A stretch of 64,000 nt of DNA, taken from contig CBDFGR010000002.1 of NCBI GenBank assembly GCA_965247115.1, positions 1,498,669 to 1,562,668 of the forward strand, given 5' to 3'. Both the position numbers and the translations under genes were made by a program. Position 1 is the first letter of the stretch. Each line of letters begins with the position of its first letter. The stretch comes from Myxococcota bacterium. Its GTDB lineage: Bacteria > Myxococcota_A > UBA9160 > SZUA-336. Under the pieces are notes generated by a model. That model saw only the letters and a program-made list of their open reading frames with translations, had not been told where the DNA came from and made no database searches. Shown piece by piece: positions 10,412 through 56,751 of the stretch.

Positions 10412-10500
10412 TTTTGGGACCCGGCCGCGGGCGTCCGCGGCCACCCACCTCCGCTCAGGCCAGGGGCCTTCGCTGCGCGCGCCGCTCTCGCAGCGCTTGC
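10412..10500 (+). repeat. GC-rich ~90-bp multi-hairpin repeat, copy A (REP/RPE/MITE-like family)
   Basis: TTTTGGGACCCGGCCGCGGGCGTCCGCGGCCACCCACCTCCGCTCAGGCC-AGG-GGCCTTCGCTGCGCGCGCCGCTCTCGCAGCGCTTGC, immediately after the selenoprotein stop; matches copies B-H. Confidence 0.85.
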
Positions 10501-10570
10501 GCGGGTGCTTGGTCGAGGACGGGGTCGGGAGATGTCGACAGGGATGGAGGCGCGGCCTAGGCTCCGTCGC

Positions 10571-10933
10571 ATGAGGCGTCGGCTTCTGGTTGTCACAACG
10601 GCCGCGATCCTCGGCGTGGGTTGTCTGGGGCCAACGCCGAATCCGGAAACTTGCAGGATCGAGATCGTCGGCGTCGAGAGCGCCGTCAACAACAACAGAG
10701 GCTTCGACATCTCGTACCGCGTGAAGGGGTACGCGGGAACACCAGGGGTCGTCTCACTCGTCGCGCAACGACACGACGGCGGCTACCTGTCGGGAAAGGG
10801 CGTCGACGTCGGCCCCGGAGCTTTCGTCGCAATCATCGAGCAAAAGCTCACCGGTCCCGCAACAGGCTACGTCGCCCTGCTCGAAGTCGCCGACAGCCGC
10901 TCCCGCGCCAACGCCAAACCACCAGAGGCCTAG
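10571..10933 (+). CDS. putative small secreted protein or lipoprotein
   Basis: Within ORF 10505..10933; MRRRLLVVTTAAILGVGC... resembles a signal peptide with lipobox-like LGVGC; bracketed by repeat copies A and B in inverted orientation. Start uncertain. Confidence 0.4.
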   Translation: MRRRLLVVTTAAILGVGCLGPTPNPETCRIEIVGVESAVNNNRGFDISYRVKGYAGTPGVVSLVAQRHDGGYLSGKGVDVGPGAFVAIIEQKLTGPATGYVALLEVADSRSRANAKPPEA

Positions 10934-10953
10934 CAGTCGACCTCGGCACCGCA

Positions 10954-11043
10954 GCAAGCGCCGCGAACGCGGCGCGCGCAGCGAAGGCCCTCGGCCTGAG
11001 CGGAGGTGGGTGGCCGCGGACGCCCGCGGCCGGGTCCCACAAG
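10954..11043 (-). repeat. GC-rich ~90-bp repeat, copy B (inverted relative to A)
   Basis: GCAAGCGCCGCGAACGCGGCGCGCGCAGCGAAGGCCCTCGGCCTGAGCGGAGGTGGGTGGCCGCGGACGCCCGCGGCCGGGTCCCACAAG; ends next to the korB stop codon. Confidence 0.85.
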
Positions 11044-12069
11044 TTACGAGACGGTCCAGCGGTCGCCGGCGAAGAGGAGGTCGGCGAGGCCTGCGTCGCC
11101 ATGCGCGAGCTCGGCCTGGGACTGCTCCTGCGTTTCACCGTCGAAGGTTGGCTCCTCCACGGCCCGCAGCACGCCGATCGGCGTGGGGAAGTCGGGCGCC
11201 TCGCAGCGGGCCAGCAACATGGACAACGTCGGGTCCCGATTCGTCTCGTCGTGCAGGACCTCCACGCCGTCGTCCTTGGCACCGACGTGACCAGCGTAGA
11301 GGCGCAGGTAGGTCGGGTTTAGCTTGAGCATACGATCGTGATCGTTGCCGTAGATGAGCGGCTGACCGTTCTCGAGCACGAGCAGGTGGTCGGACTTGAT
11401 CTTGCGGTCCTTGACCTCATCGAACACACCGTCGTTATAGACCGGGCAGTTCTGGTAGATCTCGAGGAAGGCAGAGCCTTTGTGCTCGGCCATCCGGCGA
11501 ATCATTTCCTGCAGGTGACGGGTCTCCGTGTCTACCGTCCGCGCGACGAAGGTCGCCTCGGCTCCCAGCGCCAGCGAGAGGGTGCGAAATGGCCGGGCCA
11601 CCGATCCGTTTGGCGACGACTTCGTCTTCATGCCGATCTCGGAGGTGGGCGAGAACTGACCCTTGGTCAGCCCGTAGACCTTGTTGTTGAACAGCAGGAT
11701 CTTCAGATCCACGTTGCGACGCAGCATGTGGATCAGGTGGTTTCCACCGATAGACAGCCCATCACCGTCGCCGGTCACCACCCACACGGACAGGTCGGGT
11801 CGTGCGATCTTCAGTCCGGTCGCGATGGCCGGCGCGCGCCCGTGAATCGTGTGAAAACCGAACGTGTCCATGTAGTACGGAAAGCGCGAGCTGCAGCCGA
11901 TCCCGGACACGAAGACGATGTTCTCGCGCGGGACGCCCAGCTCGGGCATGACCTTCTGCATCTGGGCGAGGATGGCGTAGTCGCCACAGCCCGGGCACCA
12001 GCGCACCGCCTCGTCCGGAATGAAGTCCTTCTTGGTCAGCTTCGGGGCATCTGCGGTCTGAATGCTCAT
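11044..12069 (-). CDS. korB: 2-oxoglutarate:ferredoxin oxidoreductase beta subunit
   Basis: 341 aa; WCPGCGDYAIL...GIGCSSRFPYYM...VVTGDGDGLSIGGNHLIHMLRRN, TPP-binding beta subunit signature; 4-bp overlap with korA. Confidence 0.85.
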   Translation of the reverse strand: MSIQTADAPKLTKKDFIPDEAVRWCPGCGDYAILAQMQKVMPELGVPRENIVFVSGIGCSSRFPYYMDTFGFHTIHGRAPAIATGLKIARPDLSVWVVTGDGDGLSIGGNHLIHMLRRNVDLKILLFNNKVYGLTKGQFSPTSEIGMKTKSSPNGSVARPFRTLSLALGAEATFVARTVDTETRHLQEMIRRMAEHKGSAFLEIYQNCPVYNDGVFDEVKDRKIKSDHLLVLENGQPLIYGNDHDRMLKLNPTYLRLYAGHVGAKDDGVEVLHDETNRDPTLSMLLARCEAPDFPTPIGVLRAVEEPTFDGETQEQSQAELAHGDAGLADLLFAGDRWTVS

Positions 12070-13949
12070 AGCCTCGCCTCGTGTAGGGCCCGTGTGGGAA
12101 GCAGCGGGCGAACAGCGTCGATGATCTCCTGAACCTTGAAGGGTTGGCCCTGCACCTTGTTCAGGCCCTTTGCGTCGACCAGGAAGCGGTGCCGCAGGAT
12201 CGAAAGCAGCTGGCCCATGTTGAGCTCCGCCACGATCACGTTGCGGTAGCGGGACAGGAGCTCGCCCACGTTCGACTGCATGGGGTTCAGGTAGCGCAGG
12301 TGGAGATGCCCGACGTCCGCGCCCTCGCTGCGCAGCGCCGCGGCCGCCTGGTGCAGCGAGCCGAAGGTGCCACCCCAGCCGACCAGGAGTACGTCACCGT
12401 GCTCCGGACCGTCGATCTCCGCCAGCGGAATCCGGTGCGCGATGCGCTCGAGCTTGGCGTGTCGGACGCGGTTCATGTGCTCGTGGTTCAGCGGGTCGTA
12501 CGAGACGTTTCCCGTCACGTCCTCTTTCTCCAGCCCTCCGATCCGGTGCTCGAGGCCCGGGGTGCCCGGCACCGCCCACGGGCGAACGAAATCGTCGTTG
12601 CGCAGGAACGGGTGGAATCCCTCGGGATCCACGCAGTTCTCGGAGCGGATCGGCTCGAGCTGCTCGGGGTCAGGCAAGAGCCAGGGCTCCGAGCCGTTCG
12701 CGAGCGACGCGTCGGACAGGTAGACGACCGGCGTCATGAACTCGATGGCAAAGCGGACCGCCTGGATCATGACGTCGAAACAGTCGGCAGGCGTCGCGGG
12801 AGCCACCACGGCCACAGGGCAGTCGCTGTTCCGACCGACCAGCGCCTGCATCAGATCGCCCTGCTCGGGCTTGGTCGGCATCCCGGTCGAGGGTCCGGCC
12901 CGCTGCACGTCGACGATCAGGAGCGGGAGCTCCGTCACGACCGCGAGCGCGATCCCCTCCTGCTTGAGCGTGAACCCGGGCCCGGAGGTTCCAGTCGCCC
13001 CCAGGACACCTCCAAACGAGGCGCCGATCGCTGCCGTCACGGCCGCGATCTCGTCCTCGGCCTGGAACGCGGTCACTCCGTAGCGGCCGTATCCCGAGAG
13101 GTGGTGCAGGATGTCGGAGGCGGGGGTGATCGGATAGCTCGCGTAGAAGATCTTGCGGCCCGCGAGCTGTCCCGCGGCCACGATGCCGAGCGCGGCGGCC
13201 TCGTTCCCCGTCACGTGGCGGTAGGGTCCCGGCTCGAGCTTGGCCGGCGGGACCCGATAGGTCGCGTCCACGAGCTCCGCCGTCTCACCAAAGTGGAAGC
13301 CCGTCAGGAAGACCTTGGCGTTCGACTCGGCGATCTCCGGTCGACGAGCGAACTTGGCTCGAATGGCCTCGACCTCGGGCTCGGGATCGCGGTTGTAGAG
13401 CCAGAACACGACGCCCAACGCAAACATATTTCGCGTCCGCTGCGTGTCCTTGGTCGATAGCCCACTGCCCTTGAGGGCTGCCGTCACGTGCTTGGAGAAG
13501 TCGATCTCGATCACGCGGTAGTCGGCGAGGCTCCCGTCCTCGAGCGGGCTTTTCTCGTAGCCTGCCAGCTCGAGGTTGCGCTTCTTGAACGACGAGTTGT
13601 CGACCAGAAGCATACCGCCGGGAATCAGGTCTGCGATGTTCGTCCTGAGCGCCGCGGGATTCATGGCCACGAGCACGTCGGGGGCGTCGCCAGCAGTAAA
13701 TATTTCGTTGCTGGAGAACTGCAGCTGGAAGCCGGAGACGCCAGCGAGACTCCCCGCGGGCGCGCGGATCTCCGCGGGGAAGTCCGGGAACGTGGCGATG
13801 TCATTGCCGAACAACGCCGCCGAGCGCGTGAACTCCGTCCCCGTGAGCTGCATCCCGTCACCCGAGTCGCCCACGAAGCGGACTACTACGGAGTCGAGCT
13901 CCTGGATGCGCGGATCGCCGACTTCGTCCGGGCCGTTCGGTTTTGTCAT
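12066..13949 (-). CDS. korA: 2-oxoglutarate:ferredoxin oxidoreductase alpha subunit
   Basis: 627 aa; RFVGDSGDGMQLTGTEF...FPDFPAEIRAPAG... typical of KorA/2-oxoacid:ferredoxin oxidoreductase alpha. Confidence 0.85.
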   Translation of the reverse strand: MTKPNGPDEVGDPRIQELDSVVVRFVGDSGDGMQLTGTEFTRSAALFGNDIATFPDFPAEIRAPAGSLAGVSGFQLQFSSNEIFTAGDAPDVLVAMNPAALRTNIADLIPGGMLLVDNSSFKKRNLELAGYEKSPLEDGSLADYRVIEIDFSKHVTAALKGSGLSTKDTQRTRNMFALGVVFWLYNRDPEPEVEAIRAKFARRPEIAESNAKVFLTGFHFGETAELVDATYRVPPAKLEPGPYRHVTGNEAAALGIVAAGQLAGRKIFYASYPITPASDILHHLSGYGRYGVTAFQAEDEIAAVTAAIGASFGGVLGATGTSGPGFTLKQEGIALAVVTELPLLIVDVQRAGPSTGMPTKPEQGDLMQALVGRNSDCPVAVVAPATPADCFDVMIQAVRFAIEFMTPVVYLSDASLANGSEPWLLPDPEQLEPIRSENCVDPEGFHPFLRNDDFVRPWAVPGTPGLEHRIGGLEKEDVTGNVSYDPLNHEHMNRVRHAKLERIAHRIPLAEIDGPEHGDVLLVGWGGTFGSLHQAAAALRSEGADVGHLHLRYLNPMQSNVGELLSRYRNVIVAELNMGQLLSILRHRFLVDAKGLNKVQGQPFKVQEIIDAVRPLLPTRALHEARL

Positions 13950-13957
13950 CGCCTTTC

Positions 13958-14464
13958 TCAGCCGCCGTACTTCTTCGGGATCTTGGCGGGATCAGGGGGA
14001 ACGTTTAGAACTGCGTCCGGAAACATCGACACGATGAACTGCACAATGTCTCGCATGGCGACGATGCCCACCGGCCGACGTTGCCCATCCACCAGCGGGA
14101 TGTGTCGGAAGCCGCCCTCCGCCATCTCGTTCAACGCGAGTGCGAGCCTGTGTTCGGGTCGGAGCACATCGGGGTCAGCCGTCATGACCTCACCTACGGA
14201 GATCGTGGACGTGTTGATTTCCTCCTGCACGATCCGGAGCAGATCGCGCTCGGTGAAGATACCCGCCAGCTTCCCGTCCTCAACTACCAGAACACAACCG
14301 GTGTGGTGCTCGTTCATGAGCCCGATCGCCTCTCGAACCGATAGCTCGCCCGAGACCTCGATCGGCTTCCTCGGGTCCAGTACCGAAATCGGCTCGTTCA
14401 TGATCGCTCCCCGGAGCGAAGTGGAATCCTCGTCGTATGCTTCGGAAAACTCGCTCTCCACCAT
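13958..14464 (-). CDS. CBS domain pair protein
   Basis: ATG at 14464 inside longer track ORF (whose N-terminal extension is translated repeat C); ...PISVLDPRKPIEVSGELSVREAIGLMNEHHTGCVLVVEDGKLAGIFTERDLLR... then a second CBS motif. Confidence 0.7.
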   Translation of the reverse strand: MVESEFSEAYDEDSTSLRGAIMNEPISVLDPRKPIEVSGELSVREAIGLMNEHHTGCVLVVEDGKLAGIFTERDLLRIVQEEINTSTISVGEVMTADPDVLRPEHRLALALNEMAEGGFRHIPLVDGQRRPVGIVAMRDIVQFIVSMFPDAVLNVPPDPAKIPKKYGG

Positions 14465-14653
14465 GAAGGCCTCCCCGAGCCCCTCCGGGCAGTGCGAAAG
14501 AATCCGGCCAGTGGCTCCTGGCGTCGACCTGGAGCGTGTCCGCACCCGCTGGGAGGGGTCGTTTGCGCCTCCGCAGTCTACCCCATCCGCCAGAGCGCAA
14601 CCCGAGATCGACCTAGACGCCGCGCCCGCTGGGTTGAGTACAGGGGCACTACT

Positions 14654-14743
14654 GCAAGCGCCGCGAAGACGGCGCGCGCAGCGAAGGCCGTAGGCCTGAG
14701 CGGAGGTGGGTGGCCGCGGCCGCCCGCGGCCGGGTCCCACAAG
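14654..14743 (-). repeat. GC-rich ~90-bp repeat, copy C
   Basis: GCAAGCGCCGCGAAGACGGCGCGCGCAGCGAAGGCCGTAGGCCTGAGCGGAGGTGGGTGGCCGCGGCCGCCCGCGGCCGGGTCCCACAAG, directly 3' of the alcohol dehydrogenase stop (14755). Confidence 0.85.
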
Positions 14744-14754
14744 ACCCGATCCCA

Positions 14755-15753
14755 CTAGATTCGGAGCACGGCGGACCCGACCACGTCCCCTCGCTTCAGG
14801 CGCTGCAGCGCGACGTTCGCCTGCTCGAGCGGGAAGCTGGTCGTGACGGGTCGGATGGGGATCTCCGCGGCCACGGCGAGCAGCTCCGCCCCGTCCCGGC
14901 GGGTGTTCGCCGTCACGCTCGTCAGTGTTCGCTCCTGAAACAGCTCTCCCTGGTAGCTGAGCGCCGGCACGTCGCTCATGTGGATGCCGGCACAGGCCAG
15001 GGTTCCGCCCGGCGCCAGCGCTCGCAGCGCGAGCGGGACGAGCTCACCCACGGGGGCGAAGTTGATCGCCGAGTCCAGAGCGCACGGAGGCTCCTCCGAC
15101 AGGCCGCCCGCCCAGGTCGCGCCGAGCTCGAGGGCAAGCTCGCGGTGTGACGCCTCTCTCGTCACCACGTAGACCTCGCAATTCCAGTGCCGCGCCACCT
15201 GCAGCGACAGGTGAGCCGAGGAGCCGAACCCGTACAGGCCCAGGCTGCAGCCGGGCCGCACCGCAGCCCGCCGCAGGGCGCGGTAGCCGATGATGCCCGC
15301 GCAAAGGAGAGGTGCAGCCTCTTCTGGGCTGAAGATCTCCGGAATGGCGTACGCGTACGCTTCCGGAACCGTCAGACGCTCGGCGTACCCACCGTCGACG
15401 TGCCAGCCGGTAAAGGTGGGCGCCTGGCACAGGTTCTCGCGTCCGCTCTGGCAGTAGGGGCAGAGGCGGCATGTGTCGTGGAGCCAGGCGACGCCCACCC
15501 GCGTACCAATCGGGAAGCGCGCGGCAGCGGAGCCACGAGCCGAGACGGTTCCCACGACCTGATGGCCGGGCACGACGCGCGGCTGTGCCTGGTCGAGCTC
15601 GCCCTCGATCAGGTGCAGATCGGTGCGGCAGACGCCGCAGGTGGACACCTCGACAAGGATCTCGGCGGGACCCGGCTCCGGATCGGGGAGCGACTCGAGA
15701 ACGAGCGGCGACCGCTCGATCGGGGCGGGGTCGTGCAACACCATCGCGCGCAT
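14755..15753 (-). CDS. zinc-dependent alcohol dehydrogenase family (MDR) oxidoreductase
   Basis: MRAMVLHD...CGVCRTDLHLIEGE...GHQVVGTV... and GLYGFGSSAHL NAD-binding region; start taken at internal ATG near 15753. Confidence 0.8.
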   Translation of the reverse strand: MRAMVLHDPAPIERSPLVLESLPDPEPGPAEILVEVSTCGVCRTDLHLIEGELDQAQPRVVPGHQVVGTVSARGSAAARFPIGTRVGVAWLHDTCRLCPYCQSGRENLCQAPTFTGWHVDGGYAERLTVPEAYAYAIPEIFSPEEAAPLLCAGIIGYRALRRAAVRPGCSLGLYGFGSSAHLSLQVARHWNCEVYVVTREASHRELALELGATWAGGLSEEPPCALDSAINFAPVGELVPLALRALAPGGTLACAGIHMSDVPALSYQGELFQERTLTSVTANTRRDGAELLAVAAEIPIRPVTTSFPLEQANVALQRLKRGDVVGSAVLRI

Positions 15754-15803
15754 CTGCGCCCGCCAGCTTGCCACACGAGCCCGCCGTGGGAACACTCGGC
15801 CGT

Positions 15804-16517
15804 GTGAATCTCATCCTGCTCGATCCCGAGGACTTCGTGTCCCGAGACCGTGTGCGGCTCACGGGTCGACGCCTGGACCACGTGCGCCACGTGTGCCGCG
15901 CCAGCGTGGGCGAGAGTCTGCGCGTGGGCGAGGTTGGCGGCATGCTCGGCTCCGGTCGCGTCCTGAGCCTGGCTGAGCAAGCCCTCGAGCTCGAGGTCAG
16001 GCTCGATCAGGCCCCCCCGGCGCCGCTCGCGGTCACCCTGGCCGTGGCCCTGCCGCGGCCGCCGGCTCTGCGCAGGCTACTGCAGCAGGCAACTGCGCTA
16101 GGGGTCAAGCGCATCCTGCTCTTTCACAGCAGGCGGGTGGAGAAGAGCTACTGGCAGAGCCATGGGCTCGAGAGCGCGGCCATCGAGATGCAGCTGCGGC
16201 TCGGCCTGGAGCAGGCGCGCGACACGATCCTACCCGAGGTCGGAACCCGCCGACGCTTCCGGCCCTTCGCCGAGGACGAGGTCCCGGAGCTGGCGAAAGT
16301 GGGCGCCGTCCTCGTGGCCGACCCGGGCGCCGCGCAGCTCACCGCTCCGGCTGATCCCGGCCAACCCTCGACGCTGATCGTCGGGCCGGAGGGGGGACTC
16401 GTGCCGTTCGAGCTCGAGCTACTGACGACGAGTGGCGCGCGCCTGCTGGGACTGGGCGAGCGCGTGCTTCGCGTGGAGACGGCCGTCGTGGCACTCCTCG
16501 CGCGCCTCGCGCTATAG
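15804..16517 (+). CDS. rsmE: 16S rRNA (uracil1498-N3)-methyltransferase RsmE-like
   Basis: GTG at 15804 in frame of ORF 15471..16517; C-terminal ...STLIVGPEGGLVPFELELL...GARLLGLGERVLRVETAV is RsmE-like. Confidence 0.65.
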   Translation: MNLILLDPEDFVSRDRVRLTGRRLDHVRHVCRASVGESLRVGEVGGMLGSGRVLSLAEQALELEVRLDQAPPAPLAVTLAVALPRPPALRRLLQQATALGVKRILLFHSRRVEKSYWQSHGLESAAIEMQLRLGLEQARDTILPEVGTRRRFRPFAEDEVPELAKVGAVLVADPGAAQLTAPADPGQPSTLIVGPEGGLVPFELELLTTSGARLLGLGERVLRVETAVVALLARLAL

Positions 16518-16526
16518 ACAGGGACC

Positions 16527-26973: not shown

Positions 26974-27249
26974 TTAGGAGAAGGGCGTGGAATCATCGTC
27001 GAGCGCATCCGCCCCGAGCTCCTCGAGCTCCACGAATTCCTCGACTTCCTCGACTTCCTCGACCTCCGCCACCTCCAGATCTCGTTCCTGGTACGCGTTG
27101 GCAAGGTAATCGTGGATGGCGTTGTTCTCCGGGTCGATCGCCCGCGCTCGCTCCCAGCAATCGATCGCAGCCTCGAGGTTGCTCAGCCCGTAGTGGTTGA
27201 GTCCCCGCTTGAGCAGGCGCGTAACCTCCTTGTTGCGATCCGCGGCCAA
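26974..27249 (-). CDS. small TPR-like protein with acidic tail
   Basis: 91 aa; ...GLSNLEAAIDCWERARAIDPENNAIHDYLANAYQ... TPR-like helix pair, then EVEEVEEVEEF acidic run; stop TAA at 26974-26976. Confidence 0.4.
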   Translation of the reverse strand: MAADRNKEVTRLLKRGLNHYGLSNLEAAIDCWERARAIDPENNAIHDYLANAYQERDLEVAEVEEVEEVEEFVELEELGADALDDDSTPFS

Positions 27250-46401: not shown

Positions 46402-46425
46402 GAACAAAGCATAACGAAAAGCAAA

Positions 46426-46471
46426 CCCCTACCCGATCGGCAACCTGAACCCCTAGCCGATCGGCAACCTG
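46426..46471. promoter_or_regulatory. tandem 24-bp direct repeat, each unit carrying the palindrome CCGATCGG; candidate regulator-binding site
   Basis: CCCCTACCCGATCGGCAACCTG-aa-CCCCTAGCCGATCGGCAACCTG located 25-70 bp upstream of the epimerase start. Confidence 0.35.
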
Positions 46472-46553
46472 CAAGCGCCGCAATTGCGGCGCGCGCAGCG
46501 AAGGCCTGAGCGAAGGTGGGTGGCCCGCGGACGCCCGCGGGCCGGGTCCCACA
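46471..46553 (-). repeat. GC-rich repeat, copy D (short variant lacking the GGCC-N3-GGCC hairpin)
   Basis: GCAAGCGCCGCAATTGCGGCGCGCGCAGCGAAGGCCTGAGCGAAGGTGGGTGGCCCGCGGACGCCCGCGGGCCGGGTCCCACAG directly 3' of the sigma-54 regulator stop (46559). Confidence 0.8.
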
Positions 46554-46558
46554 GGGAC

Positions 46559-47986
46559 TCACTCCGCGAGGCCACACTCCTTGATCTTCTGGAGGAGGGT
46601 CTTGTAGCTCACCTCGAGGATCTTGGCGGCCTTCTTGCGGTTCCAGTTCGTCTGATACAAAACTTGTCGCAGCGCCCGCCGTTCCGCCGCTCGAGCGGCT
46701 CGCTTGCCGATCTCGCGCAGCGACACACCCTCCTGCGTCGGATCGAGCTCCGGAGCCGCCTCGTCCTCTTCCTCCACTCTCGGGTGGACCGAAGCACTGG
46801 TTCCAAAAACCTCGTCCGCGATGACCTCCTCGCTTTGCAGCACGACGATGCGCTTCAGCATGTTCTCGAGCTCACGCACGTTCCCCGGCCAGGGATACTC
46901 CTTGAAGCCCTGCCGGAGGCGCTTGGACAGCGTGACTTGCTCGCGCCCGTACTCGCGGCTGTACAGCGTCAGGAAGTGGTCGGTGAGAAGCGGGATCTCC
47001 TCTGGCCGCTCGCGGAGCGGCGGCACGCGGACGTTCACGACGTTCAGCCGGTAATACAGATCCTCGCGGAACGTGCCTTTGCGAACCATCTCCTCCAGGT
47101 TGCGGTTCGTCGCGGCCACGACGCGGACGTCGACGCGGACCTCGGTGTGGCCGCCGAGCCGTGAGAACTCGCCGTCCTGGAGGACCTGCAGGAGCTTCGC
47201 TTGGAGCTTGGGACTCATCTCCCCGATCTCATCGAGGAACATGGTGCCACCGCAGGCGACCTCGAACTTGCCCGGCTTGCGGGACGTCGCGCCCGTGAAG
47301 GCCCCGCGCTCGTAGCCGAACAGCTCGCTCTCGAGCAGCTCCTCGGGCAAGGCCGCGCAGTTCACCTTGACGAAGCGCTTCGTGCGCCGCGTGGACAGCT
47401 CGTGCACGGTACGCGCCACGACCTCCTTGCCCACGCCACTTTCACCGTGGATCAATACGGTCACCCCGGCGTCGCCGATCTGCTCGAGGATCTCCCGGAT
47501 CCGGTTCATCTGCTCGGAGGCCCAGAGGAACGTCGCCTTGCCGCGACCGCGTTGGCTCCCGGGCAGCTCGTCCTGGTGGACCTCGGGGGCAGAGTCGAAC
47601 GCCCGCTCGAGCGCGTCCCCGAGCTCCTTCTCCTCGAAGGGCTTGTTCAGGTAGTCAACCGCGCCGATGTTCATCGCCTCCACTACGGTGGCCGCCTTGC
47701 GCACCACCGAGAGCATGATCACGGGCATGCTCGGCAAGCGGCGGCGAATCTCGCGCAGCGTGTCCAGACCACCCAGGTCCGGCATCATGACATCGAGGAA
47801 GATCGCGTCCGGCTGGGTTTCCCGCTCGAGGAGCTCTAGCGCCGCGGCGCCGTCCGCGGCCAGCACGACGTCGTATCCCAAAAGAGGCAGCAGGTTCTGC
47901 AGGTAAGCCCGAATGGCCTCTGCGTCGTCAACGACCATCACCCGTCTGCGCGAGGGAATACTTCGCGGCGCTCCGGACCTAGTCAT
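46559..47986 (-). CDS. sigma-54-dependent response regulator (NtrC family)
   Basis: RRRVMVVDDAEAIRAY receiver; GESGVGKE; ESELFGYERGAFTGA; C-terminal HTH. ATG at 47986 (track ORF starts at GTG 47995). Confidence 0.9.
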   Translation of the reverse strand: MTRSGAPRSIPSRRRVMVVDDAEAIRAYLQNLLPLLGYDVVLAADGAAALELLERETQPDAIFLDVMMPDLGGLDTLREIRRRLPSMPVIMLSVVRKAATVVEAMNIGAVDYLNKPFEEKELGDALERAFDSAPEVHQDELPGSQRGRGKATFLWASEQMNRIREILEQIGDAGVTVLIHGESGVGKEVVARTVHELSTRRTKRFVKVNCAALPEELLESELFGYERGAFTGATSRKPGKFEVACGGTMFLDEIGEMSPKLQAKLLQVLQDGEFSRLGGHTEVRVDVRVVAATNRNLEEMVRKGTFREDLYYRLNVVNVRVPPLRERPEEIPLLTDHFLTLYSREYGREQVTLSKRLRQGFKEYPWPGNVRELENMLKRIVVLQSEEVIADEVFGTSASVHPRVEEEDEAAPELDPTQEGVSLREIGKRAARAAERRALRQVLYQTNWNRKKAAKILEVSYKTLLQKIKECGLAE

Positions 47987-48044: not shown

Positions 48045-48240
48045 CTTGTGGGACCCGGCCCGCGGGCGGCCGCGGGCCACCCACCTTCGCTCAGGCCAAA
48101 GGCCTTCGCTGCGCGCGCCGCTTCCGCGGCGCTTGCCTTGTGGGACCCGGCCCGCGGGCGGCCGCGGGCCACCCACCTTCGCTCAGGCCAAAGGCCCTCG
48201 CTGCGCGCGCCGCTTCCGCGGCGCTGCGCGCGCCGCTGCA
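48045..48240 (+). repeat. GC-rich repeat, copies E1 and E2 (two tandem units, period 92 bp)
   Basis: CTTGTGGGACCCGGCCCGCGGGCGGCCGCGGGCCACCCACCTTCGCTCAGGCCAAAGGCC(T/C)TCGCTGCGCGCGCCGCTTCCGCGGCGCTTGC twice, in the divergent intergenic region between the sigma-54 regulator and ligA. Confidence 0.85.
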
Positions 48241-48406
48241 TGGGTGGGGACTCCGCAACGGGTTGCCGATTCTTCACGGAATCTGAACTTGGGAATCTGA
48301 ACTTGGGGACGGTCCTTAATCTTGCACTCGCTGCTGGCGCGGAAGGCGTGCGCTGGCGCATGCTGTCGCCACAAAGGTGCGGATTTTTGCTGAGGTCGGG
48401 GCGTAG

Positions 48407-50404
<1,998 letters not shown>

Positions 50405-50468: not shown

Positions 50469-50503
50469 TCCTTGCCCGCGCTTCGTGTTCGGGTCGGGGG
50501 AGG

Positions 50504-51358
50504 CTAGTCGGGGGGGTCGGGTTTCTGTGCGGGGACGTGGGCGAGGATGCTGCGGTAGGCGGTAGTTCTGGAGACGCCCAGCTCCGTGGCCAGCTTCCGG
50601 GCTACGTCGCGGACGCTCAGGCCCGAGGCGAGGAGCTCCTCGATGTGGGGGGCGAGGTTCGTGGGGTCGGGCTCCGCGGCGGAGGCGGGGCCCTCCACGA
50701 TCAAGGTGACCTCGCCCCGCGTCCGGTCGAGGTGGACCTCGCCGAGCCGGCCGCGGACGAATTCCTCGTAGAGCTTCGTGAGCTCCCGTCCGATCGCGAT
50801 CCGCCTCGGGCCGAGCGTACGAAACAGGTCCGCGAGCGTGTCGTTCACCCGCCCCGGCGCCTCGTAGAATACGAGCGTTCCCGGGAACGCGGCTACGCGT
50901 TCCAGTGTCAGGTGTCGCGCGCGGCCTTTGCGCGGCAGGAAGCCCTCGAACGCGAAGGGCCGTGTCGCAAAGCCACTGCCAACGAGCCCTGCCAGCAGTG
51001 CGGACGGCCCGGGAACAGGCACGACCTCTATCCCGCCTGCAAGGGCGGCGCTCACCAGCGCAAGGCCTGGGTCCGAGAGCAGTGGGGTCCCCGCGTCCGA
51101 GACGAGCGCGATCGAGTCGCCGGTCTTCAAGCGGCCCAGGAGCATCGGGACACGCCGCGCCTCGTTGTGCGCGTGGAGTGAGACGCGCCGGGTCGGGATC
51201 TCGAAGCGCTGGCACAGGCGCGCGGTCCGCCGCGTGTCCTCGCACGCAATCAGCGCGACCTCTCGCAGCGTGCGCAGCGCTCGCACGCTCGCGTCATCTA
51301 GATTCCCGATCGGCGTCGCGACCACGTAGACGCGGCCCGGATTCTCCGATATCGTCAC
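50504..51358 (-). CDS. rsmI: 16S rRNA (cytidine1402-2'-O)-methyltransferase RsmI
   Basis: ...GRVYVVATPIGNLDDASVRALRTLREVALIACEDTR...; GTG at 51358 preferred over upstream ATG 51448 because of the divergent yraN-like gene. Confidence 0.8.
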   Translation of the reverse strand: MTISENPGRVYVVATPIGNLDDASVRALRTLREVALIACEDTRRTARLCQRFEIPTRRVSLHAHNEARRVPMLLGRLKTGDSIALVSDAGTPLLSDPGLALVSAALAGGIEVVPVPGPSALLAGLVGSGFATRPFAFEGFLPRKGRARHLTLERVAAFPGTLVFYEAPGRVNDTLADLFRTLGPRRIAIGRELTKLYEEFVRGRLGEVHLDRTRGEVTLIVEGPASAAEPDPTNLAPHIEELLASGLSVRDVARKLATELGVSRTTAYRSILAHVPAQKPDPPD

Positions 51359-51392
51359 CCGTGCCTCACCCCGGCTCTCGGTCCCGAAGGCG

Positions 51393-51770
51393 CTGGATAT
51401 TCCCACCGAGCGGAACACGCGAGCACTGGGCCGCCGCGGCGAGGACATCGCACAGTCCTTCCTGGAGGACCGGGGCTACCGTATTCTCGCACGCAACGTT
51501 CACCTCCGGCACGCGGAGCTGGACCTCGTGGCCCTCGACGGCGACACACTCTGCTTCGTCGAGGTACGACTGCGCAGGAGCCGGCGCTTCGGCAGCGCCG
51601 AGGAATCGATCGATAAGCGAAAGCAGCGCCGCATCCTTCGCGCCGCCTCGCAGCTCCTGGCCACCCGAAGCCTCCCTCGCTTCCGCAAGATTCGCTTCGA
51701 CGTAATAGCAATCGACGCCTCCCATCACCCCCCGGAGGTAGGTCACTTCCGAAACGCCTTCCACCGCTAG
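51393..51770 (+). CDS. YraN family (UPF0102) predicted endonuclease; start codon uncertain (no ATG/GTG in frame upstream)
   Basis: ...RRGEDIAQSFLEDRGYRILARNVHLRHAELDLVALDGDTLCFVEVRLRRS...IRFDVIAIDAS...; divergent from rsmI as in the E. coli rsmI/yraN region. Confidence 0.6.
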   Translation: MDIPTERNTRALGRRGEDIAQSFLEDRGYRILARNVHLRHAELDLVALDGDTLCFVEVRLRRSRRFGSAEESIDKRKQRRILRAASQLLATRSLPRFRKIRFDVIAIDASHHPPEVGHFRNAFHR

Positions 51771-51783
51771 CCGAGCCAACCGG

Positions 51784-51876
51784 GCAAGCGCCGCGGAACG
51801 CGGCGCGCGCAGCGAAGGCCGAAGGCCTGAGCGAAGGTGGGTGGCCCGCGGACGCCCGCGGGTCGGGTCCCACAAG
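51784..51876 (-). repeat. GC-rich repeat, copy F
   Basis: GCAAGCGCCGCGGAACGCGGCGCGCGCAGCGAAGGCCGAAGGCCTGAGCGAAGGTGGGTGGCCCGCGGACGCCCGCGGGTCGGGTCCCACAAG between convergent yraN-like and rplS. Confidence 0.85.
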
Positions 51877-51882
51877 ACAGGT

Positions 51883-52233
51883 CTATTCGGCCGTGTAGCG
51901 CTCGCGGATCCGCGCTGCCTTGCCCCGCAGCTCGCGCAAGTAGAAGAGGCGCGAGCGGCGCACGCGGCCGCGCGACTTGAGCTCGATCCGGACCACGTTC
52001 GGCGACTGCAGGGGGAAGACGCGCTCGACGCCGACGCCGTAGGACACCTTGCGTACGGTGAACGTCTCGTGCATCCCACCCCGATGGCGCTGGAGCACAA
52101 CTCCCTCGAAGACCTGCACGCGCTCCTTGTCCCCCTCCGTGATCCGGACGTGCACGCGAACGGTGTCACCGCTGCGAAACTGCGGGTGGTCGGTCCGCAT
52201 GCCCTCTCTCTCGATCTCTCGAATCTCTCTCAT
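51883..52233 (-). CDS. rplS: 50S ribosomal protein L19
   Basis: 116 aa; ...[55 protein letters not shown]... Confidence 0.95.
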
Positions 52234-52958
52234 TTTCCTAACTCCCGGAGGAACTTCCGATCCTCCTCGCTCAAGCGCTCCGTCTCGAGCAGCTCCGGCC
52301 TGCGGCGCCGCGTCACGCGAAGGGACTCCTCGCGCCGAAAGCGTTCGATGCGTGCGTGATTGCCCGACAGCAAGGGCTCCGGGACGGTGCGGCCCCGGAA
52401 CTCCCGGGGTCGCGTGAAGATCGGGTGCTCCAGAAGCCCCTCGCTAAAGGTGTCGGCCTGCGGCGAGATGGGATTTCCGACGACGCCGGGCACGAGCCGG
52501 GTCACAGCCTCGGTCACGACCAGGGCCGCCGCCTCTCCGCCCGAAATCACGAAGTCCCCAATTGAAAGCTCCTCGGCGCCCGTCTCCTCGAAGATCCGCT
52601 CGTCGAAGCCCGCATAGCGGCCACAGAGCAGGAGCAGCTGCCGCTCTGCAGCCAGCTCCTGGGCCAGGACCTGATCGAAGAGGCGTCCTCGAGGACCCAG
52701 CGCGCAGATCCGCGCACCTGGGAACGCGAGGGCCTCGACGGCCGCGACGACCGGCTCGCACTTGAGCACCATCCCGTCGCCCCCACCGTAGGGCTCGTCG
52801 TCCACGCTGCGCTGCTTGTCCGTGGCGTACGCTCGCAGGTCGCTGACCCGAACCTCGACGACCCCCTCGCGGCGAGCCGCGCCGAGCAGCGAGCCCTTGA
52901 GAAAGTGCTCCACCAGCTCGGGAAAGATGGTGACGATGTCGATACGAGGGCCCGCCAT
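52230..52958 (-). CDS. trmD: tRNA (guanine37-N1)-methyltransferase
   Basis: 242 aa; IDIVTIFPE...[13 protein letters not shown]...[13 protein letters not shown]. Confidence 0.95.
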
Positions 52959-52959
52959 A

Positions 52960-53541
52960 TCAGGCCTCGTCCTCGATCATTCCTGCTGGAGGATCCAGCC
53001 AGATCTCTCCCGCCTCGAGATCCACCCGAACTAGGAGCTCGCGCAGGGCGGGTACCAGGTTTTGGTGCGAGCCCTTGCACACCACGAGCACGTCGCTGGC
53101 GCGCGTCGACCAGATCTCTTCGACTCGCCCCAGCTCGCTCCCGTCGGGGAGGCGCGCACGCAGACCGATGATCTCGCGCCAGTAGAACTCGCCCGCCGGC
53201 AGCGCTTGGATCGCTGCTTCGCGCAGCGAGAGCCGCGCTCCCTTCCACTCCACGGCCTGCTCGCGGCTGCCGAGTCCCAGCAGCTCGAGATGGGCCCGCG
53301 CGTGCCCGGCGCGGCTCGGACTCGCCGCCAGCGCGTGGCGGATCCGAAAGGGGATCTCGCCGGGGCCGCCCTCGAGACGGACCTCCGTCGCCTCTAGGAG
53401 ATTCTTGAGATCCTCGCCGTGAAGCTCGACCAGCAGGCGGCCCTCGCGACCCGTCGGTCGCAGCAGCCACCCGATCTCGACCCACGTGCCGCTCCCAGTG
53501 TCGGGCAGGCTCGAAAGCTCACTTGCGCCTCTCGCAGCCAC
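52960..53541 (-). CDS. rimM: ribosome maturation factor RimM
   Basis: Position between trmD and rpsP plus PRC-barrel-like C-terminus; start uncertain (GTG at 53541). Confidence 0.8.
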   Translation of the reverse strand: MAARGASELSSLPDTGSGTWVEIGWLLRPTGREGRLLVELHGEDLKNLLEATEVRLEGGPGEIPFRIRHALAASPSRAGHARAHLELLGLGSREQAVEWKGARLSLREAAIQALPAGEFYWREIIGLRARLPDGSELGRVEEIWSTRASDVLVVCKGSHQNLVPALRELLVRVDLEAGEIWLDPPAGMIEDEA

Positions 53542-53566
53542 GTCCGCACAACCCGATCGCGCTCGC

Positions 53567-53836
53567 TCAGCTGGCCGCGGGCTGCGGCTCTTCCGCTGCC
53601 TCGCGCGCGCGCTTGCGAATGAGCGATGCGACGCTGTCGCTGACGCGCGCTCCCTTACCGACCCAGGCGTCGAAAGCCTGCCGCTTGAGCGAGAGCTCGG
53701 TGCCGGGCGCGAGCGGGTCGTAGGTTCCCAGGAACTCCAGCGCGCGACCGCTGCGCTTGGTCCGGGAGTCGACAGCTACGATGCGGTACTTCGGGCGCTT
53801 CTTGGCACCCGCTCGAAACAGGCGAATGGTCACCAT
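53567..53836 (-). CDS. rpsP: 30S ribosomal protein S16
   Basis: ATG at 53836; MVTIRLFRAGAKKRPKYRIVAVDSRTKRSGRALEFLGTYDP... Confidence 0.95.
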   Translation of the reverse strand: MVTIRLFRAGAKKRPKYRIVAVDSRTKRSGRALEFLGTYDPLAPGTELSLKRQAFDAWVGKGARVSDSVASLIRKRAREAAEEPQPAAS

Positions 53837-53904
53837 ACTGGAGTCCTCACGGAAGGTCCGAGGCGCGCCGCGAGGCACCCTCGGAAGAAGTGAAGTGGGC
53901 GAAA

Positions 53905-54114
53905 TTATAGGCGCTTTGCGCTCGAGTCAAGCGCGCCGGTACGGCGCGCCTCCTTCTCTCGGGAGCAGTCCCGACAGGCGTACCGGACTGGGTGACGCTG
54001 GGGGAGTCTGTCATAGCCCTGATCCAATGCGATCCTGCGCACGTGCGTTACCGGGCGTCCGCAGAAATCGCACTTCTCGAGTCCGCCCTGGTCCACGCTG
54101 GCGCAAGGTAGCAC
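53905..54114 (-). CDS. hypothetical small zinc-ribbon protein (weak call)
   Basis: 69-aa ORF with CDFCGRP...CRDCS; upstream of rpsP on the same strand; could be non-coding. Confidence 0.3.
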   Translation of the reverse strand: MLPCASVDQGGLEKCDFCGRPVTHVRRIALDQGYDRLPQRHPVRYACRDCSREKEARRTGALDSSAKRL

Positions 54115-54148
54115 AGGCGCCGCGGGGGGCGTCTGCTAGGGTTGCGGT

Positions 54149-54466
54149 GTGCGTGGCCGGCACCCAGGACGGCGCAAGAGTGGGCCACCCGAAGCGGTGG
54201 CGACTCTGTTGCCCAGCGTGCTCGACGAAGTGGGACTCGGCGCGACGTCAGACGCGGTGCAGCTCGTCCACGTCTGGGACGAGACCCTCGGCGAGCCCTT
54301 TGCTGCGAACTGCCGCCCCGAGGGTGTCCGCAAGGGGGTGGTGGTGGCCCGAGTCCCCGACTCGGCCTGGATGCAGCGTATCCAGCTCGAGAAGCCACGC
54401 ATCCTGAAGCGCCTGGCAGAAGCGCTCGCGGAGCCCCCGCACGACATCCGACTCCTCATCGGCTGA
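54149..54466 (+). CDS. DUF721 (DciA-like) family protein
   Basis: ...VHVWDETLGEPFAANCRPEGVRKGVVVARVPDSAWMQRIQLEKPRILKRLAEALAEPPHDIRLLIG resembles the DUF721 pattern. Confidence 0.5.
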   Translation: MRGRHPGRRKSGPPEAVATLLPSVLDEVGLGATSDAVQLVHVWDETLGEPFAANCRPEGVRKGVVVARVPDSAWMQRIQLEKPRILKRLAEALAEPPHDIRLLIG

Positions 54467-55055
54467 GCACGGCCGCCTCCAGGATCGCGTCGAAGCGGAT
54501 CGCCCCCTCGCGCAGGAGACGCAGGTTCCCGTCGGGATCGAGTGCAACGACGCTCGACGGGGCAAGATTCCCGGCCGTCCCCGCGACGACTGGCAGCTCC
54601 TGGCCGAAGAGCTCGTGAACCTCGCAAGCGGTCCCACATGGCGCTTCCCCGCTGCGATTGCAGCTCGTCGCGGCGATCGGCCGCTCGTACAGCCGCGCCA
54701 GGCGAGCGGCGACCGGGTGCGAGGAGCACCGAAAGCCGACACCGAACTCTGTAGCCACCTGCGCGAACGCGACGTCGACCTGTTGCAGCACCAGGGTGAG
54801 GGGACCGGGCCAGAAGCGCTTGGTCAAAAGAAGCGCTGGTTCGGGAAGGCTCGGGAGCCAGGCCTCCAGCGCGCTCGCGTCCCGGACCAGCACCGAGAGC
54901 CCGCGCTCGGGCGCCCGCCCCTTGAGGACTTGGAGTGCCTCGAGCGCGCTCGGCTCGAAGACGTCGACACCGAGGCCAAAGACGGTCTCGGTGGGATAGG
55001 CCACGACCCGCCCAGTCCCGAGGAGGCGAACGGCCTCGTCCGCAGAAACGATCAA
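54456..55055 (-). CDS. tsaC: L-threonylcarbamoyladenylate synthase (YrdC/TsaC family)
   Basis: TTG at 55055 overlapping purD stop (TTGA); ...GRVVAYPTETVFGLGVD...KGRAPERGLSVLV... YrdC motif. Confidence 0.75.
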   Translation of the reverse strand: MIVSADEAVRLLGTGRVVAYPTETVFGLGVDVFEPSALEALQVLKGRAPERGLSVLVRDASALEAWLPSLPEPALLLTKRFWPGPLTLVLQQVDVAFAQVATEFGVGFRCSSHPVAARLARLYERPIAATSCNRSGEAPCGTACEVHELFGQELPVVAGTAGNLAPSSVVALDPDGNLRLLREGAIRFDAILEAAVLSR

Positions 55056-56623
55056 CCCGCGTGGTCCCGGAGCGCCCGGAGCGCAATGTCGCTCCTGAGC
55101 TGGGCACCCTCGAACTGGATGCGACGCGCGGCGGCGTAGGCACGATCGCGGGCGGCGGCGATGCTGGCACCGCGGGCCGTGATGCCGAGCACGCGCCCAC
55201 CTGCCGTCTCCCAGCGACCGCCAGAGCGGCGGGTGGCGGCGTGAAACACGAGAACCTCCGGCTCGCTCTCGAGCTCCTCGAGCCCCCTGATCTCTCGCCC
55301 CACCGGGTAGCTGCGCGGATAGCCCTCGCTCGCCAGCACGACGCACACGGCCGGATCCCCGAAGACGGGGCCTGCGGGACCCGGCGCGCGAGCGGTCGCG
55401 CGCCACCCACCTCCGCTCGGCTTCGCCTCGCTGCGCGCGCCGCTATCCGCGGCGCTTGCACCTGCGGGACCCGGCGCGCGAGCGGTCGCGCGCCACCCAC
55501 CTCCGCTCGGCTTCGCCTCGCTGCGCGCGCCGCTATCCGCGGCGCTTGCACCTGCGGGACCCGGCGCGCGAGCGGTCGCGCGCCACCCACCTCCGCTCGG
55601 CTTCGCCTCGCTGCGCGCGCCGCTATCCGCGGCGCTTGCACCTGCGGGATCCGGCGCGCGAGCCGCTTGCAGAGGGAGCTGGCCCTGGGCCGCACCCACG
55701 AGCAGCGGGACGAGGTCGGACTCCATTCGGTACAGCAGAGGCTGCGTCTCCGGGTCGCCGAAGCGGACGTTAAACTCCACCACAACGGGCTCGGCCTCGA
55801 CGACCATCACGCCGACGTAGAGCACTCCCCGATAGGGCGTGCCCTCCGCACGCAGGCCGTCGAGCGTGGGCTGAACGATCTTCTCGATGATTCGCTGCTC
55901 CACGTCGGGGCTCACAACCGGGGCCGGGGAGTAGGCGCCCATGCCTCCTGTGTTCTCGCCGCGGTCACCGTCTAGCGCGCGTTTGTGATCCTGCGCAGCG
56001 GCCAGGCACACGCTGCGCTCCCCGTCGGAGATCGCGTAGTACGAGGCCTCCTCGCCAACGAGCCAGTCCTCGATCACGACCTCGGCACCGGAGTCGCCGA
56101 AGCGCCGCTCGCGCATGATCTCCGAGAGGGCAACGCTCGCCTCATCCGGACCCGCGCACATGTACACGCCCTTGCCAGCCGCGAGCCCGTCCGCCTTCAC
56201 GACAAGCGGCCCGCCGCGAGCGCGCACATACCGCTCCGCTTTGTCTGGGTCCGCGAAGCCCTGGTAGGCGGCAGTCGGGATGCCGTGGCGCTGCATGAAG
56301 GCCTTGGCGAAGCTCTTGCTGCCCTCAAGGCGAGCCGCGGCCGCGCCGGGCCCGAATACCGCGATCCCGGCAGCCTCGAGGTGATCCGCCAATCCCGCGA
56401 CCAGGGGAACCTCGGGACCGACGACCACCAGCTGAACGTCCTCGCGTTTCACGAGCTCCACGACGGAGTCGGGGCTGGCCAGCCGCGCCTCCGCACAGCG
56501 GCCGTGTCGCCCGATGCCGTCGCTGCCCGGGGCGCAGAGCACCTCGTCGACCAGCGGGCTGCGGCCGATCGCCCAGACCAGCGCGTGCTCACGACCTCCC
56601 GAGCCCAGAACCAGGACGCGCAT
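55052..56623 (-). CDS. purD: phosphoribosylamine--glycine ligase, carrying an about 95-aa in-frame insertion of repeat units
   Basis: MRVLVLGSGGREHAL...PLVVKADGLAAGKGV...FNVRFGDPETQ... then (ASAADSGARSEAKPSGGGWRATARAPGPAG)x3 before ...VVLASEGYP...; ATG at 56623 with GGAGGAG RBS. Confidence 0.9.
   Translation of the reverse strand: MRVLVLGSGGREHALVWAIGRSPLVDEVLCAPGSDGIGRHGRCAEARLASPDSVVELVKREDVQLVVVGPEVPLVAGLADHLEAAGIAVFGPGAAAARLEGSKSFAKAFMQRHGIPTAAYQGFADPDKAERYVRARGGPLVVKADGLAAGKGVYMCAGPDEASVALSEIMRERRFGDSGAEVVIEDWLVGEEASYYAISDGERSVCLAAAQDHKRALDGDRGENTGGMGAYSPAPVVSPDVEQRIIEKIVQPTLDGLRAEGTPYRGVLYVGVMVVEAEPVVVEFNVRFGDPETQPLLYRMESDLVPLLVGAAQGQLPLQAARAPDPAGASAADSGARSEAKPSGGGWRATARAPGPAGASAADSGARSEAKPSGGGWRATARAPGPAGASAADSGARSEAKPSGGGWRATARAPGPAGPVFGDPAVCVVLASEGYPRSYPVGREIRGLEELESEPEVLVFHAATRRSGGRWETAGGRVLGITARGASIAAARDRAYAAARRIQFEGAQLRSDIALRALRDHAG
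55371..55674 (+). repeat. GC-rich repeat, copies G1-G3 plus a partial fourth, period exactly 90 bp, inside purD coding sequence
   Basis: CCTGCGGGACCCGGCGCGCGAGCGGTCGCGCGCCACCCACCTCCGCTCGGCTTCGCCTCGCTGCGCGCGCCGCTATCCGCGGCGCTTGCA repeated at 55371, 55461, 55551; a diverged variant of the intergenic repeat. Confidence 0.85.
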
Positions 56624-56631
56624 CACTCCTC

Positions 56632-56751
56632 CTTGTGGGACCCGCGCGCGGGCGGCCCTCCCGCGGGTCAACGACCCGCGGGCCGCTGACGGCTTCCCAC
56701 CTTCGCTCAGGCCTACGGCCTTCGCTGCGCGCGCCGCTATGCGGCGCTTGC
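56632..56751 (+). repeat. GC-rich repeat, copy H (long variant with about 30-bp internal insertion)
   Basis: CTTGTGGGACCCGCGCGCGGGCGGCCCTCCCGCGGG...TTCCCACCTTCGCTCAGGCCTACGGCCTTCGCTGCGCGCGCCGCTATGCGGCGCTTGC; abuts the purD RBS and lies 3' of alr. Confidence 0.8.

Follow-up and report, generated by a model that had tools for sequence, protein, structure and literature searches.

Of the small repeats described in bacterial genomes, several groups come close to the element that we report here, a repeat of ~100 bp with three hairpins which occurs at eight loci (A to H) in a 64-kb window of a Myxococcota chromosome (64,000 nucleotides of contig CBDFGR010000002.1). Repetitive extragenic palindromes (REP/BIME), together with the GTAG-REP superfamily and REPINs (PMC3733652, PMC2817692), are dispersed, GC-rich, hairpin-forming and mostly extragenic, cluster and have occasional intragenic copies; they are enriched between convergent and co-directional genes, lie near or overlap stop codons (with TAG supplied or adjacent) and carry neither terminal inverted repeats nor target duplications. 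Mycobacterial interspersed repetitive units that vary in number in tandem (MIRU-VNTR) are GC-rich units of 40-100 bp, set head-to-tail at the boundaries of open reading frames (ORFs), whose copy number differs between close strains; MIRUs have been described as inserting at start codons (PMC12548453). Rickettsia palindromic elements are palindromic repeats of ~100-150 bp that sit in frame inside housekeeping genes, where they encode a tolerated peptide (PMC10969869). Classical MITEs (miniature transposable elements with inverted repeats), amongst them Correia/NEMIS, ERIC, BOX/RUP/SPRITE and Chunjie, are small, non-autonomous and dispersed, form stable stem-loops in transcripts, and can alter the expression of their neighbours.

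The present repeat shares something with each of these groups and is apparently a family undescribed before: searches of the literature on the sequence string, and on myxobacterial REP or MITE families, found nothing relevant. Two points are notable, the ‘polar’ insertion at stop codons that emerges from comparison with insert-free relatives, and a variable-number array that sits in frame within purD.

The repeat unit, its hairpins and its hosts

A first-pass annotation, made from the letters of the window alone, had counted ~13 units at the eight loci. BLASTN, TRF and nhmmer were each used and all eight listed loci were recovered; they are also confirmed by a 21-mer from hairpin 3, GGCCTTCGCTGCGCGCGCCGC, with eight matches at ≤3 mismatches against 0.04 expected in the window, and by a covariance model built from 39 copies and run over the whole window with filters off. 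The model and nhmmer both find 11 full units at these loci (55-107 bits in the model), with no further match above 19 bits anywhere in the 64 kb, and the count comes down to 11 full units plus partial ones: single units at A, B, C, D, F and H, two at E, and three at G together with a 33-nt, internally deleted unit.

Units have a GC content of ~78% and the consensus (GT)CTTGTGGGACCCGG-CC(C)GCGG-GCGK-CCGC(G)GG-CCACCCACCTYCGCTCAGGCC-NNN-GGCCTTCGCTGCGCGCGCCGC-N4-GCGGCGCTTGCAGG(G)TTGCC, with a fixed 5' end, CTTGTGGGACCC, and a 3' end, CTTGCAGG(G)TTGCC, that lies ~10 nt beyond the limit first drawn; the three palindromic modules proposed in the same annotation are, by contrast, upheld by covariation across the 39 copies. 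Module 1 reads GTGGG-ACCC-[9-bp stem]-A-CCCAC, module 2 GC..AGGCC-NNN-GGCCU..GC, and module 3 GCUGC-G-GCGCCGC-N4-GCGGCGC-U-UGCAG.

Either strand is predicted to fold into three hairpins, with z mostly from -2 to -4.5. In a 32-pair structure laid over the 39 distinct copies, 95.9% of cells form standard pairs, a figure that falls to 28-51% in slid controls, and double (compensatory) changes are found at seven pairs, matched by none of 500 shuffles; four pairs covary in the apical stem of hairpin 1, which also has a paired C:G/G:C indel (alignment columns 18/33). In relatives from metagenomes the stems of hairpins 1 and 2 are wholly different in sequence yet complementary which, taken with the compensatory changes, shows that hairpin formation is under constraint. 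The substitutions, though, show no strand preference (G·U 17 against A·C 15), such that sense RNA is not favoured over antisense RNA or hairpins in single-stranded DNA. No T-tract follows hairpin 3, TTGCAGGGTTGCC standing there instead, and neither a terminator scan nor a search for sigma-70-like sites returned a site at any unit. A Rho-independent terminator is rejected on the first two of these counts.

The unit is non-coding, since its lengths (84-93 nt) and indels (1-2 nt) are not multiples of three, and no reading frame is conserved within it. Nearly all six frames are open, as expected at 78% GC, and the many ORFs called through the repeats had rightly been set aside as spurious. Terminal inverted repeats are lacking, as CTTGTGGGACCC has no inverted identity with GGCAACCCTGCAAG, the 3' end in reverse complement. 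Where the CTTG at the 5' end varies (CCTG, CATG, ACTG), no matching change is seen in the one at the 3' end, and on that basis CTTG was rejected as a target-site duplication.

An exact scan with the 21-mer over contigs representing one genome per species returned 22 loci, 20 in the Myxococcota metagenome-assembled genome (MAG) CBDDEE01 and two in the Deltaproteobacteria MAG JAUXJB01; nhmmer counts 29 copies within them, and the window shares synteny with none of the 22. A search with a gapped pattern returned nine JGI metagenome contigs, three of which (L031, L032, L034) hold diverged copies, and the same region of the chromosome is present, at 98.2% identity, in long-read contigs from three ENA samples. 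The repeat is a real family that spans multiple genomes, and one that we read as specific to a lineage of uncultured Myxococcota. Copies were absent from the viral contigs and the plasmid collection searched, no Rfam family matched at gathering or relaxed thresholds, and a scan for tRNA and tmRNA found nothing.

Polar placement at the ends of genes

Placement was examined over 29 independent loci with defined neighbours (L009 and L015 were left out), using GC3-based, Pfam-checked gene calls; these miss short or low-GC3 genes, and the contexts of A-D, L006, L009 and L015 were corrected by hand. The 5' end of the repeat lies ≤11 nt from a co-oriented stop codon in 18 of the 29, where random placement and orientation within free spacer gives an expectation of 6.9; a count of 18 was reached in none of 200,000 simulations. 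Distances have a median of 7 nt at the 5' side but 64 nt at the 3' side, with the 3' end ≤11 nt from a stop in only five loci. The abutment on stops that had been remarked upon for A, B, C, D and F, where the gaps are 5, 0, 11, 3 and 6 nt and the orientation is the same, thus extends to other genomes.

Orientation itself is another matter, as copies between co-directional genes divide into eight sense and six antisense, and those in antisense bring the same 5' end to within 7-39 nt upstream of start codons (H/purD, L002, L007 (alaS) and L008). At copy H, for instance, 7 nt separate the 5' end from the purD ATG downstream, and CCCACAAG plus GAGG makes up an AAGGAGG Shine-Dalgarno sequence. The robust rule is hence that the 5' end sits at an ORF boundary, rather than that a sense hairpin follows a gene; of the positional and orientational biases suggested at the outset, the former stands at 18 loci against 6.9 and the latter is not strong.

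TAG is the neighbouring stop codon in 13 of the 18 cases, against a share of 36% in other genes (p=0.002). Of the 18 stop-adjacent copies, 13 have NTAG at 1-11 nt upstream (three more have a nearby TAG whose ORF was not validated), the preceding base being G in seven, C in eight and A or T in three, and in six copies exactly 1 nt separates TAG from CTTG. Neither the remaining copies nor the junctions within tandem arrays have such a TAG.

For sites A, B and C, insert-free relatives were available. Contigs L042/L043, in which the oxidoreductase beta subunit is 87% identical, are syntenic across hisS-rsmE-adh-CBS-korAB and have no repeat copy. At site C, the alignment gap against L042 opens immediately 3' of the adh TAG and the downstream spacers are of equal length (62 vs 63 nt), so that ~115 nt were inserted directly after the stop. 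The spacer behind the Rdx/SelW-like gene at site A measures 34 nt in L042 and 164 nt in the window, the difference starting at the TAG. Site B is more involved: in L042 (6704-6707) the convergent oxidoreductase beta and hypothetical genes have overlapping stops in the palindrome CTAG, in L044 (a 95% relative) the two lie 15 nt apart, and in the window the beta-subunit gene has lost its final two codons, its new stop being a TAA fused to CTTG. No target duplication is seen at A, B or C against the insert-free L042 and L044. A relative with an L19 of 93% identity (L040) has two copies in the spacer between rplS and UPF0102: a partial one in sense orientation, lying 2 nt past the TAG of rplS, and a full one that runs opposite to copy F of the window and brings its 5' end to 10 nt from the stop of UPF0102; this is an independent event that followed the same placement rule. 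Collectively, the insert-free comparisons point to polar insertion at the stop codon in preference to placement driven by function.

In L008 (1345-2346), a RecA-like ORF runs at its end into a degenerate repeat copy (2133-2221), which contains its last ~17 codons and its TAG, and an inverted full copy comes after at 2258-2346; this is another case in which the repeat supplies a C-terminus and stop codon.

Copies in the window, the purD array and copy-number change

The window is ordinary chromosomal core (accD-like, hisS, aspS, argG, dnaK, hslUV, xerC, trmFO, dprA, ileS, ligA, rplS-trmD-rimM-rpsP, purD and alr), and its copies are listed in Table 1.

Table 1. Copies of the repeat, the purD gene and a nested palindrome; positions refer to the window unless a contig is named.
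Feature	Position	Strand	Description
Copy A	10411..10508	+	single unit; 5' end 5 nt past TAG (10403-10405) of Rdx/SelW-like gene
Copy B	10945..11043	-	single unit between convergent genes; 5' end fused to TAA (11044-11046), gap 0
Copy C	14646..14754	-	full unit (14646-14743) plus 11-nt mini-unit TGGGATCGGGT (14744-14754)
Copy D	46463..46555	-	single unit without 7 nt of hairpin 2; 3 nt past TGA (46559-46561) of sigma-54 response regulator
Array E	48045..48228	+	two head-to-tail units, period 92; divergent spacer, sigma-54 regulator / ligA
Copy F	51775..51876	-	single unit; convergent rplS / UPF0102 spacer, 6 nt past rplS TAG (51883-51885)
purD	55052..56623	-	phosphoribosylamine-glycine ligase, 523 aa; repeat insert between GARS_A and GARS_C
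Array G	55370..55672	+	303 nt: three 90-bp units plus 33-nt internally deleted unit keeping both termini; antisense to purD, in frame
Copy H	56631..56759	+	unit with nested palindrome in hairpin 1; antisense to flanking genes
24-nt palindrome	56667-56690		within copy H
24-nt palindrome	L036 9935-9958		
24-nt palindrome	L038 9934-9957		
24-nt palindrome	L037 1612-1635		
24-nt palindrome	L044 1578-1601		

Several copies are preceded by ‘mini-units’ of 9-33 nt that keep both termini (TGGG…CTTG), these being found ahead of full units at A, C, L006, L007 and in purD. The TGGGC between the TAG and copy A resembles a remnant of the 5' end, whilst the mini-unit of copy C directly abuts the TAG (14755-14757) of a zinc alcohol dehydrogenase gene, leaving the full unit at a distance of 11 nt. 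Upstream of copy B is the gene for a 2-oxoacid:ferredoxin oxidoreductase beta subunit, and the 3' end of the copy is 11 nt from the TAG of the opposing gene (10931-10933). In copy H, hairpin 1 has a nested palindrome of 35 nt, and a degenerate fragment of the repeat continues from the unit as far as the alr stop (56803). At three different loci of the chromosome, the apical loop of hairpin 1 contains a nested 24-nt palindrome, GTCAGCGGCCCGCGGGTCGCTGAC; either this is a subfamily of units with long stems, or a smaller palindromic element inserts into the larger.

Within purD, the Pfam domains GARS_A (residues 117-309 of the ORF) and GARS_C (441-531) are separated by ~130 residues, as against ~30 in homologues. 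The extra segment, (PGPAGASAADSGARSEAKPSGGGWRATARA)x3.3, amounts to 101 residues and is encoded by the antisense strand of the repeat; that copy G lies inside purD had been recorded from the outset, and it does so in frame. The closest database homologues have 523 aa (100% identity), 463 aa (99%), 433 aa (98%) and 427 aa (92% and below), and contain respectively 33+270, 33+90, 33 and 0 nt of repeat DNA between the codons for …QLP and PVFG…, equivalent to an insert of 101, 41 or 11 residues that is missing from the 92% relative. Every purD allele found is in frame and free of stops, the unit here being exactly 90 nt, and the flanking domains are intact in the forms that bear an insert. An AlphaFold2 model of PurD has a mean pLDDT of 82, with residues 328-414 below 50 and in coil and most of the rest above 90; the insert is thus predicted to be a tolerated, disordered loop.

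The purD array numbers 0, 0.3, 1.3 or 3.3 units among strains and relatives in which PurD is 92-100% identical, and comparison with relatives reveals similar changes elsewhere. Among strains ~98% identical, locus E has 1, 2, 2.4 or 3.4 units and locus H from one to two or more units plus fragments, in spacers of 179, 246 and 313 bp; at locus F, a 98% strain shows a 5' duplication of 20 bp together with an insertion of 30 bp. These array changes resemble those of variable-number tandem repeats, and are consistent with slippage or unequal recombination between head-to-tail units.

Other small features of the window were noted in passing. At 46424-46471, the 3' tail of copy D falls within a 24-bp tandem duplication (AACCCCTACCCGATCGGCAACCTG x2). 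A further short repeat, GGAACTTGGGGACGGTCC, lies at 48278-48315 behind a 14-bp tandem (GGAATCTGAACTTG x2) and recurs in L003, L004, L009, L012, L015 and L021, at 20-60 nt on the 3' side of the main element. Next to dnaK, a small TPR-like ORF contains a tandem of 9-bp units (CGACCTCCT x6.9; 27015-27076). Lastly, the Rdx/SelW-like gene (PF10262; 10187-10405, forward strand) has an in-frame TGA at 10217-10219 in a C-G-A-U motif (MHISITYCGA*NYLPQ…); this TGA is kept in L042 and L044, and the gene therefore probably encodes a selenoprotein that is truncated by ordinary ORF calling.

Origin of the placement and comparison with known systems

Synthesising these observations, we consider that the repeat is probably a non-coding, non-autonomous, dispersed element of a REP-, MIRU- and Rickettsia palindromic element-like kind, which is spread in trans by an end-specific enzyme, filtered by selection and remodelled by slippage. 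We suggest that insertion would be polar and end-specific, catalysed by an enzyme encoded elsewhere, for which the most plausible candidate is an HUH/Y1 protein (similar to the REP-associated tyrosine transposases, RAYTs, or to IS200/IS605), or some other transposase that makes no target-site duplication. Purifying selection would then remove those insertions that break genes, and copy number would shift by replication slippage or unequal recombination between CTTG-flanked units. Most copies are co-transcribed with the gene upstream, and on that account their hairpins probably impede 3'-to-5' exonucleases, or act as termination-pause structures, as a side effect; effects at mRNA 3' ends are accordingly plausible consequences of the placement and not its demonstrated cause.

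Several observations weigh against this proposal. There is no transposase or RAYT among the ~55 window genes scanned or amongst those annotated in syntenic contigs, all of which are housekeeping, nor any match to Y1_Tnp among the proteins scanned (the window plus short loci), and the neighbours of copies in L007, L008, L009, L015 and L020 are only housekeeping genes with no transposase; the case for mobility thus comes solely from presence/absence and from the multi-genome distribution. Given that the gap between stop and unit varies from 0 to 11 nt, and that about half of the copies have no nearby TAG, a strict tetranucleotide target is not demonstrated. The insert-free relatives are 5-13% diverged, such that right-hand junctions cannot be placed to the base, and the ENA strain contigs are long-read assemblies at 4-10x with some frameshifts, in which only unit-scale length differences are to be trusted and small ones may be assembly errors. 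(TP_methylase and ligA, intact in the window, are split in related ENA contigs (L025/L026 10926-11779; L038 16117-18116), probably by frameshifts of assembly.)

A more specific version, which we put forward as a possibility of rather low probability, has the repeat as a mobile element that targets ORF boundaries, with a recombinase that leaves no target duplication joining the fixed 5' end directly 3' of stops (preferentially TAG) or a little upstream of starts on the opposite strand. If true, gene ends would be tagged genome-wide with hairpin ‘cassettes’, C-termini or stops would be rewritten, as at site B, and the logic of insertion at ORF boundaries would differ from that of REP/RAYT elements, MITEs and MIRUs.

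The first-pass annotation had favoured selection for a stem-loop at the 3' end, as a stabiliser or terminator. In its full form, this would make the repeat a selected RNA module of the 3' untranslated region, placed after stops to stabilise mRNA against 3'-to-5' exonucleases, to terminate transcription or to modulate terminating ribosomes, as proposed for those REPs of E. coli that lie near stop codons. The 5' end does abut co-oriented stops far above chance, its stems are stable (z from -2 to -4.5 in most copies) and covary, many copies lie between convergent or co-directional genes where transcription is expected, and GTAG-REPs have been reported as predominantly downstream of ORFs and transcribed (PMC3733652). 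Set against this are the 8:6 split of orientation between co-directional genes, the antisense copies whose same 5' end comes next to start codons, the lack of a sense-strand signature in the G·U and A·C substitutions (17 vs 15), the missing T-tract and blank terminator scan, and the copies in a divergent promoter spacer (E) and antisense inside purD (G); moreover, function leaves unexplained why the insertion should start exactly at the TAG when compared with insert-free relatives. The placement can be explained without any function at mRNA 3' ends, which the data do not require, and we regard such a module as unlikely and its inference from the placement as unsupported, although a selected function of the RNA or of the DNA keeps some probability.

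It is similarly doubtful, in our estimation, that the repeat belongs to the GTAG-tagged REP superfamily as a complex member which a RAYT mobilises, with (G/C)TAG as a cleavage tetranucleotide that doubles as the stop of the host gene. The enrichment of TAG beside the 5' end (13 of 18, p=0.002), the six copies in which TAG and CTTG are exactly 1 nt apart and the want of terminal inverted repeats or target duplications, as for HUH/Y1 elements, would all fit. However, the unit is ~100 bp with three different hairpins where a single palindrome of 20-40 bp is expected, the bases before TAG (G 7, C 8) are those predicted by GC3 composition alone, antisense, tandem-internal and intragenic copies have no TAG, spacing varies over 0-11 nt, arrays are head-to-tail and not inverted dimers, and no RAYT gene is present among the proteins scanned.

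The earlier likening to REP/BIME and to Rickettsia palindromic elements holds in so far as the repeat is dispersed, hairpin-forming and, on occasion, in frame within a gene, but its designation as a MITE does not. A classical MITE, in the sense of an internally deleted insertion sequence (IS) with terminal inverted repeats and a target duplication, would match the small size, the dispersal, the hairpin-forming transcript and the occasional in-frame intragenic copy (PMC10969869); it is very improbable here, as CTTGTGGGACCC and GGCAACCCTGCAAG are not inverted repeats, CTTG variants are not mirrored, filled and insert-free sites show no duplication, and the element is GC-rich, not AT-rich. Slightly less probable still is a multi-copy gene for a structured non-coding RNA, a cis-regulatory RNA or a repeated protein-coding module: the helices covary and nearly all six frames are open, yet there is no Rfam match at either threshold and no promoter-like site, the indels, not being multiples of three, exclude coding (open frames being expected at 78% GC), and copy number differs between near-identical strains. 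An assembly or chimeric artefact confined to the window contig, as the first-pass annotation had allowed, has next to no standing, for although assembly is prone to errors over tandem arrays and GC-rich palindromes and related long-read contigs are frameshifted, the family recurs in at least five other independent assemblies or samples and in two other MAGs, with PurD variants of 433, 463 and 523 aa all in frame and recorded in NCBI and ENA sources, and the artefact is refuted for the family as a whole.

The repeat adds a well-delimited family to Myxococcota, a phylum for which the literature searched describes none of the kind. On the practical side, it causes spurious ORF calls and assembly breaks in MAGs of 67-70% GC, and its arrays are ready-made markers for strain typing in metagenomes. 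PurD, with forms of 427, 433, 463 and 523 aa, is a clean natural example of in-frame repeat expansion in an essential enzyme. The polar rule of 5' end at stop, in turn, gives a handle on the choice of target by repeats that have neither inverted repeats nor target duplications; an enzyme responsible for insertion, should there be one, would be worth finding.

How, then, does the family compare with the systems described to date? With REP elements and REPINs it shares dispersal, GC-richness, hairpins, a mostly extragenic position with occasional copies inside genes, enrichment between convergent and co-directional genes, clustering, position near stops and the absence of inverted repeats and target duplications, but those are single palindromes of 20-40 bp, with a fixed, unpaired GTAG tag, in alternating or inverted dimers, whereas this unit is ~100 bp with three distinct hairpins and no clearly fixed tag, E and G run head-to-tail with inverted pairs only occasional (L007 4794/5030, L008, L040), no RAYT was found within the scanned proteins, and there is no sequence similarity to any described family. 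The head-to-tail arrays at ORF boundaries and their variation between close strains recall MIRU-VNTR; MIRUs, however, have a short ORF that is coupled to the gene downstream, and are not built of conserved hairpins. Such a coupled ORF was rejected here on the unit lengths and indels given above and for want of consistent overlap with a downstream start (e.g. L001), and the preferred boundary is the stop codon, in a different host phylum. The purD array is the same phenomenon as in Rickettsia palindromic elements (PMC10969869), with tandem amplification in addition; those elements are AT-rich and Rickettsia-specific, with nearly half of the copies from three families intragenic, as against one of eight window loci for a repeat of 78% GC in a Myxococcota host, whose intragenic insert varies in copy number at the level of strains. 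Classical MITEs are likewise small, non-autonomous and dispersed, but the present element has no terminal inverted repeats, target-site duplication or related IS, is GC-rich, and is polar relative to ORF ends. The family therefore lacks what defines a MITE, a canonical REP or a MIRU, yet shares behaviour with all three, and is an interesting but not unprecedented kind of selfish repeat.

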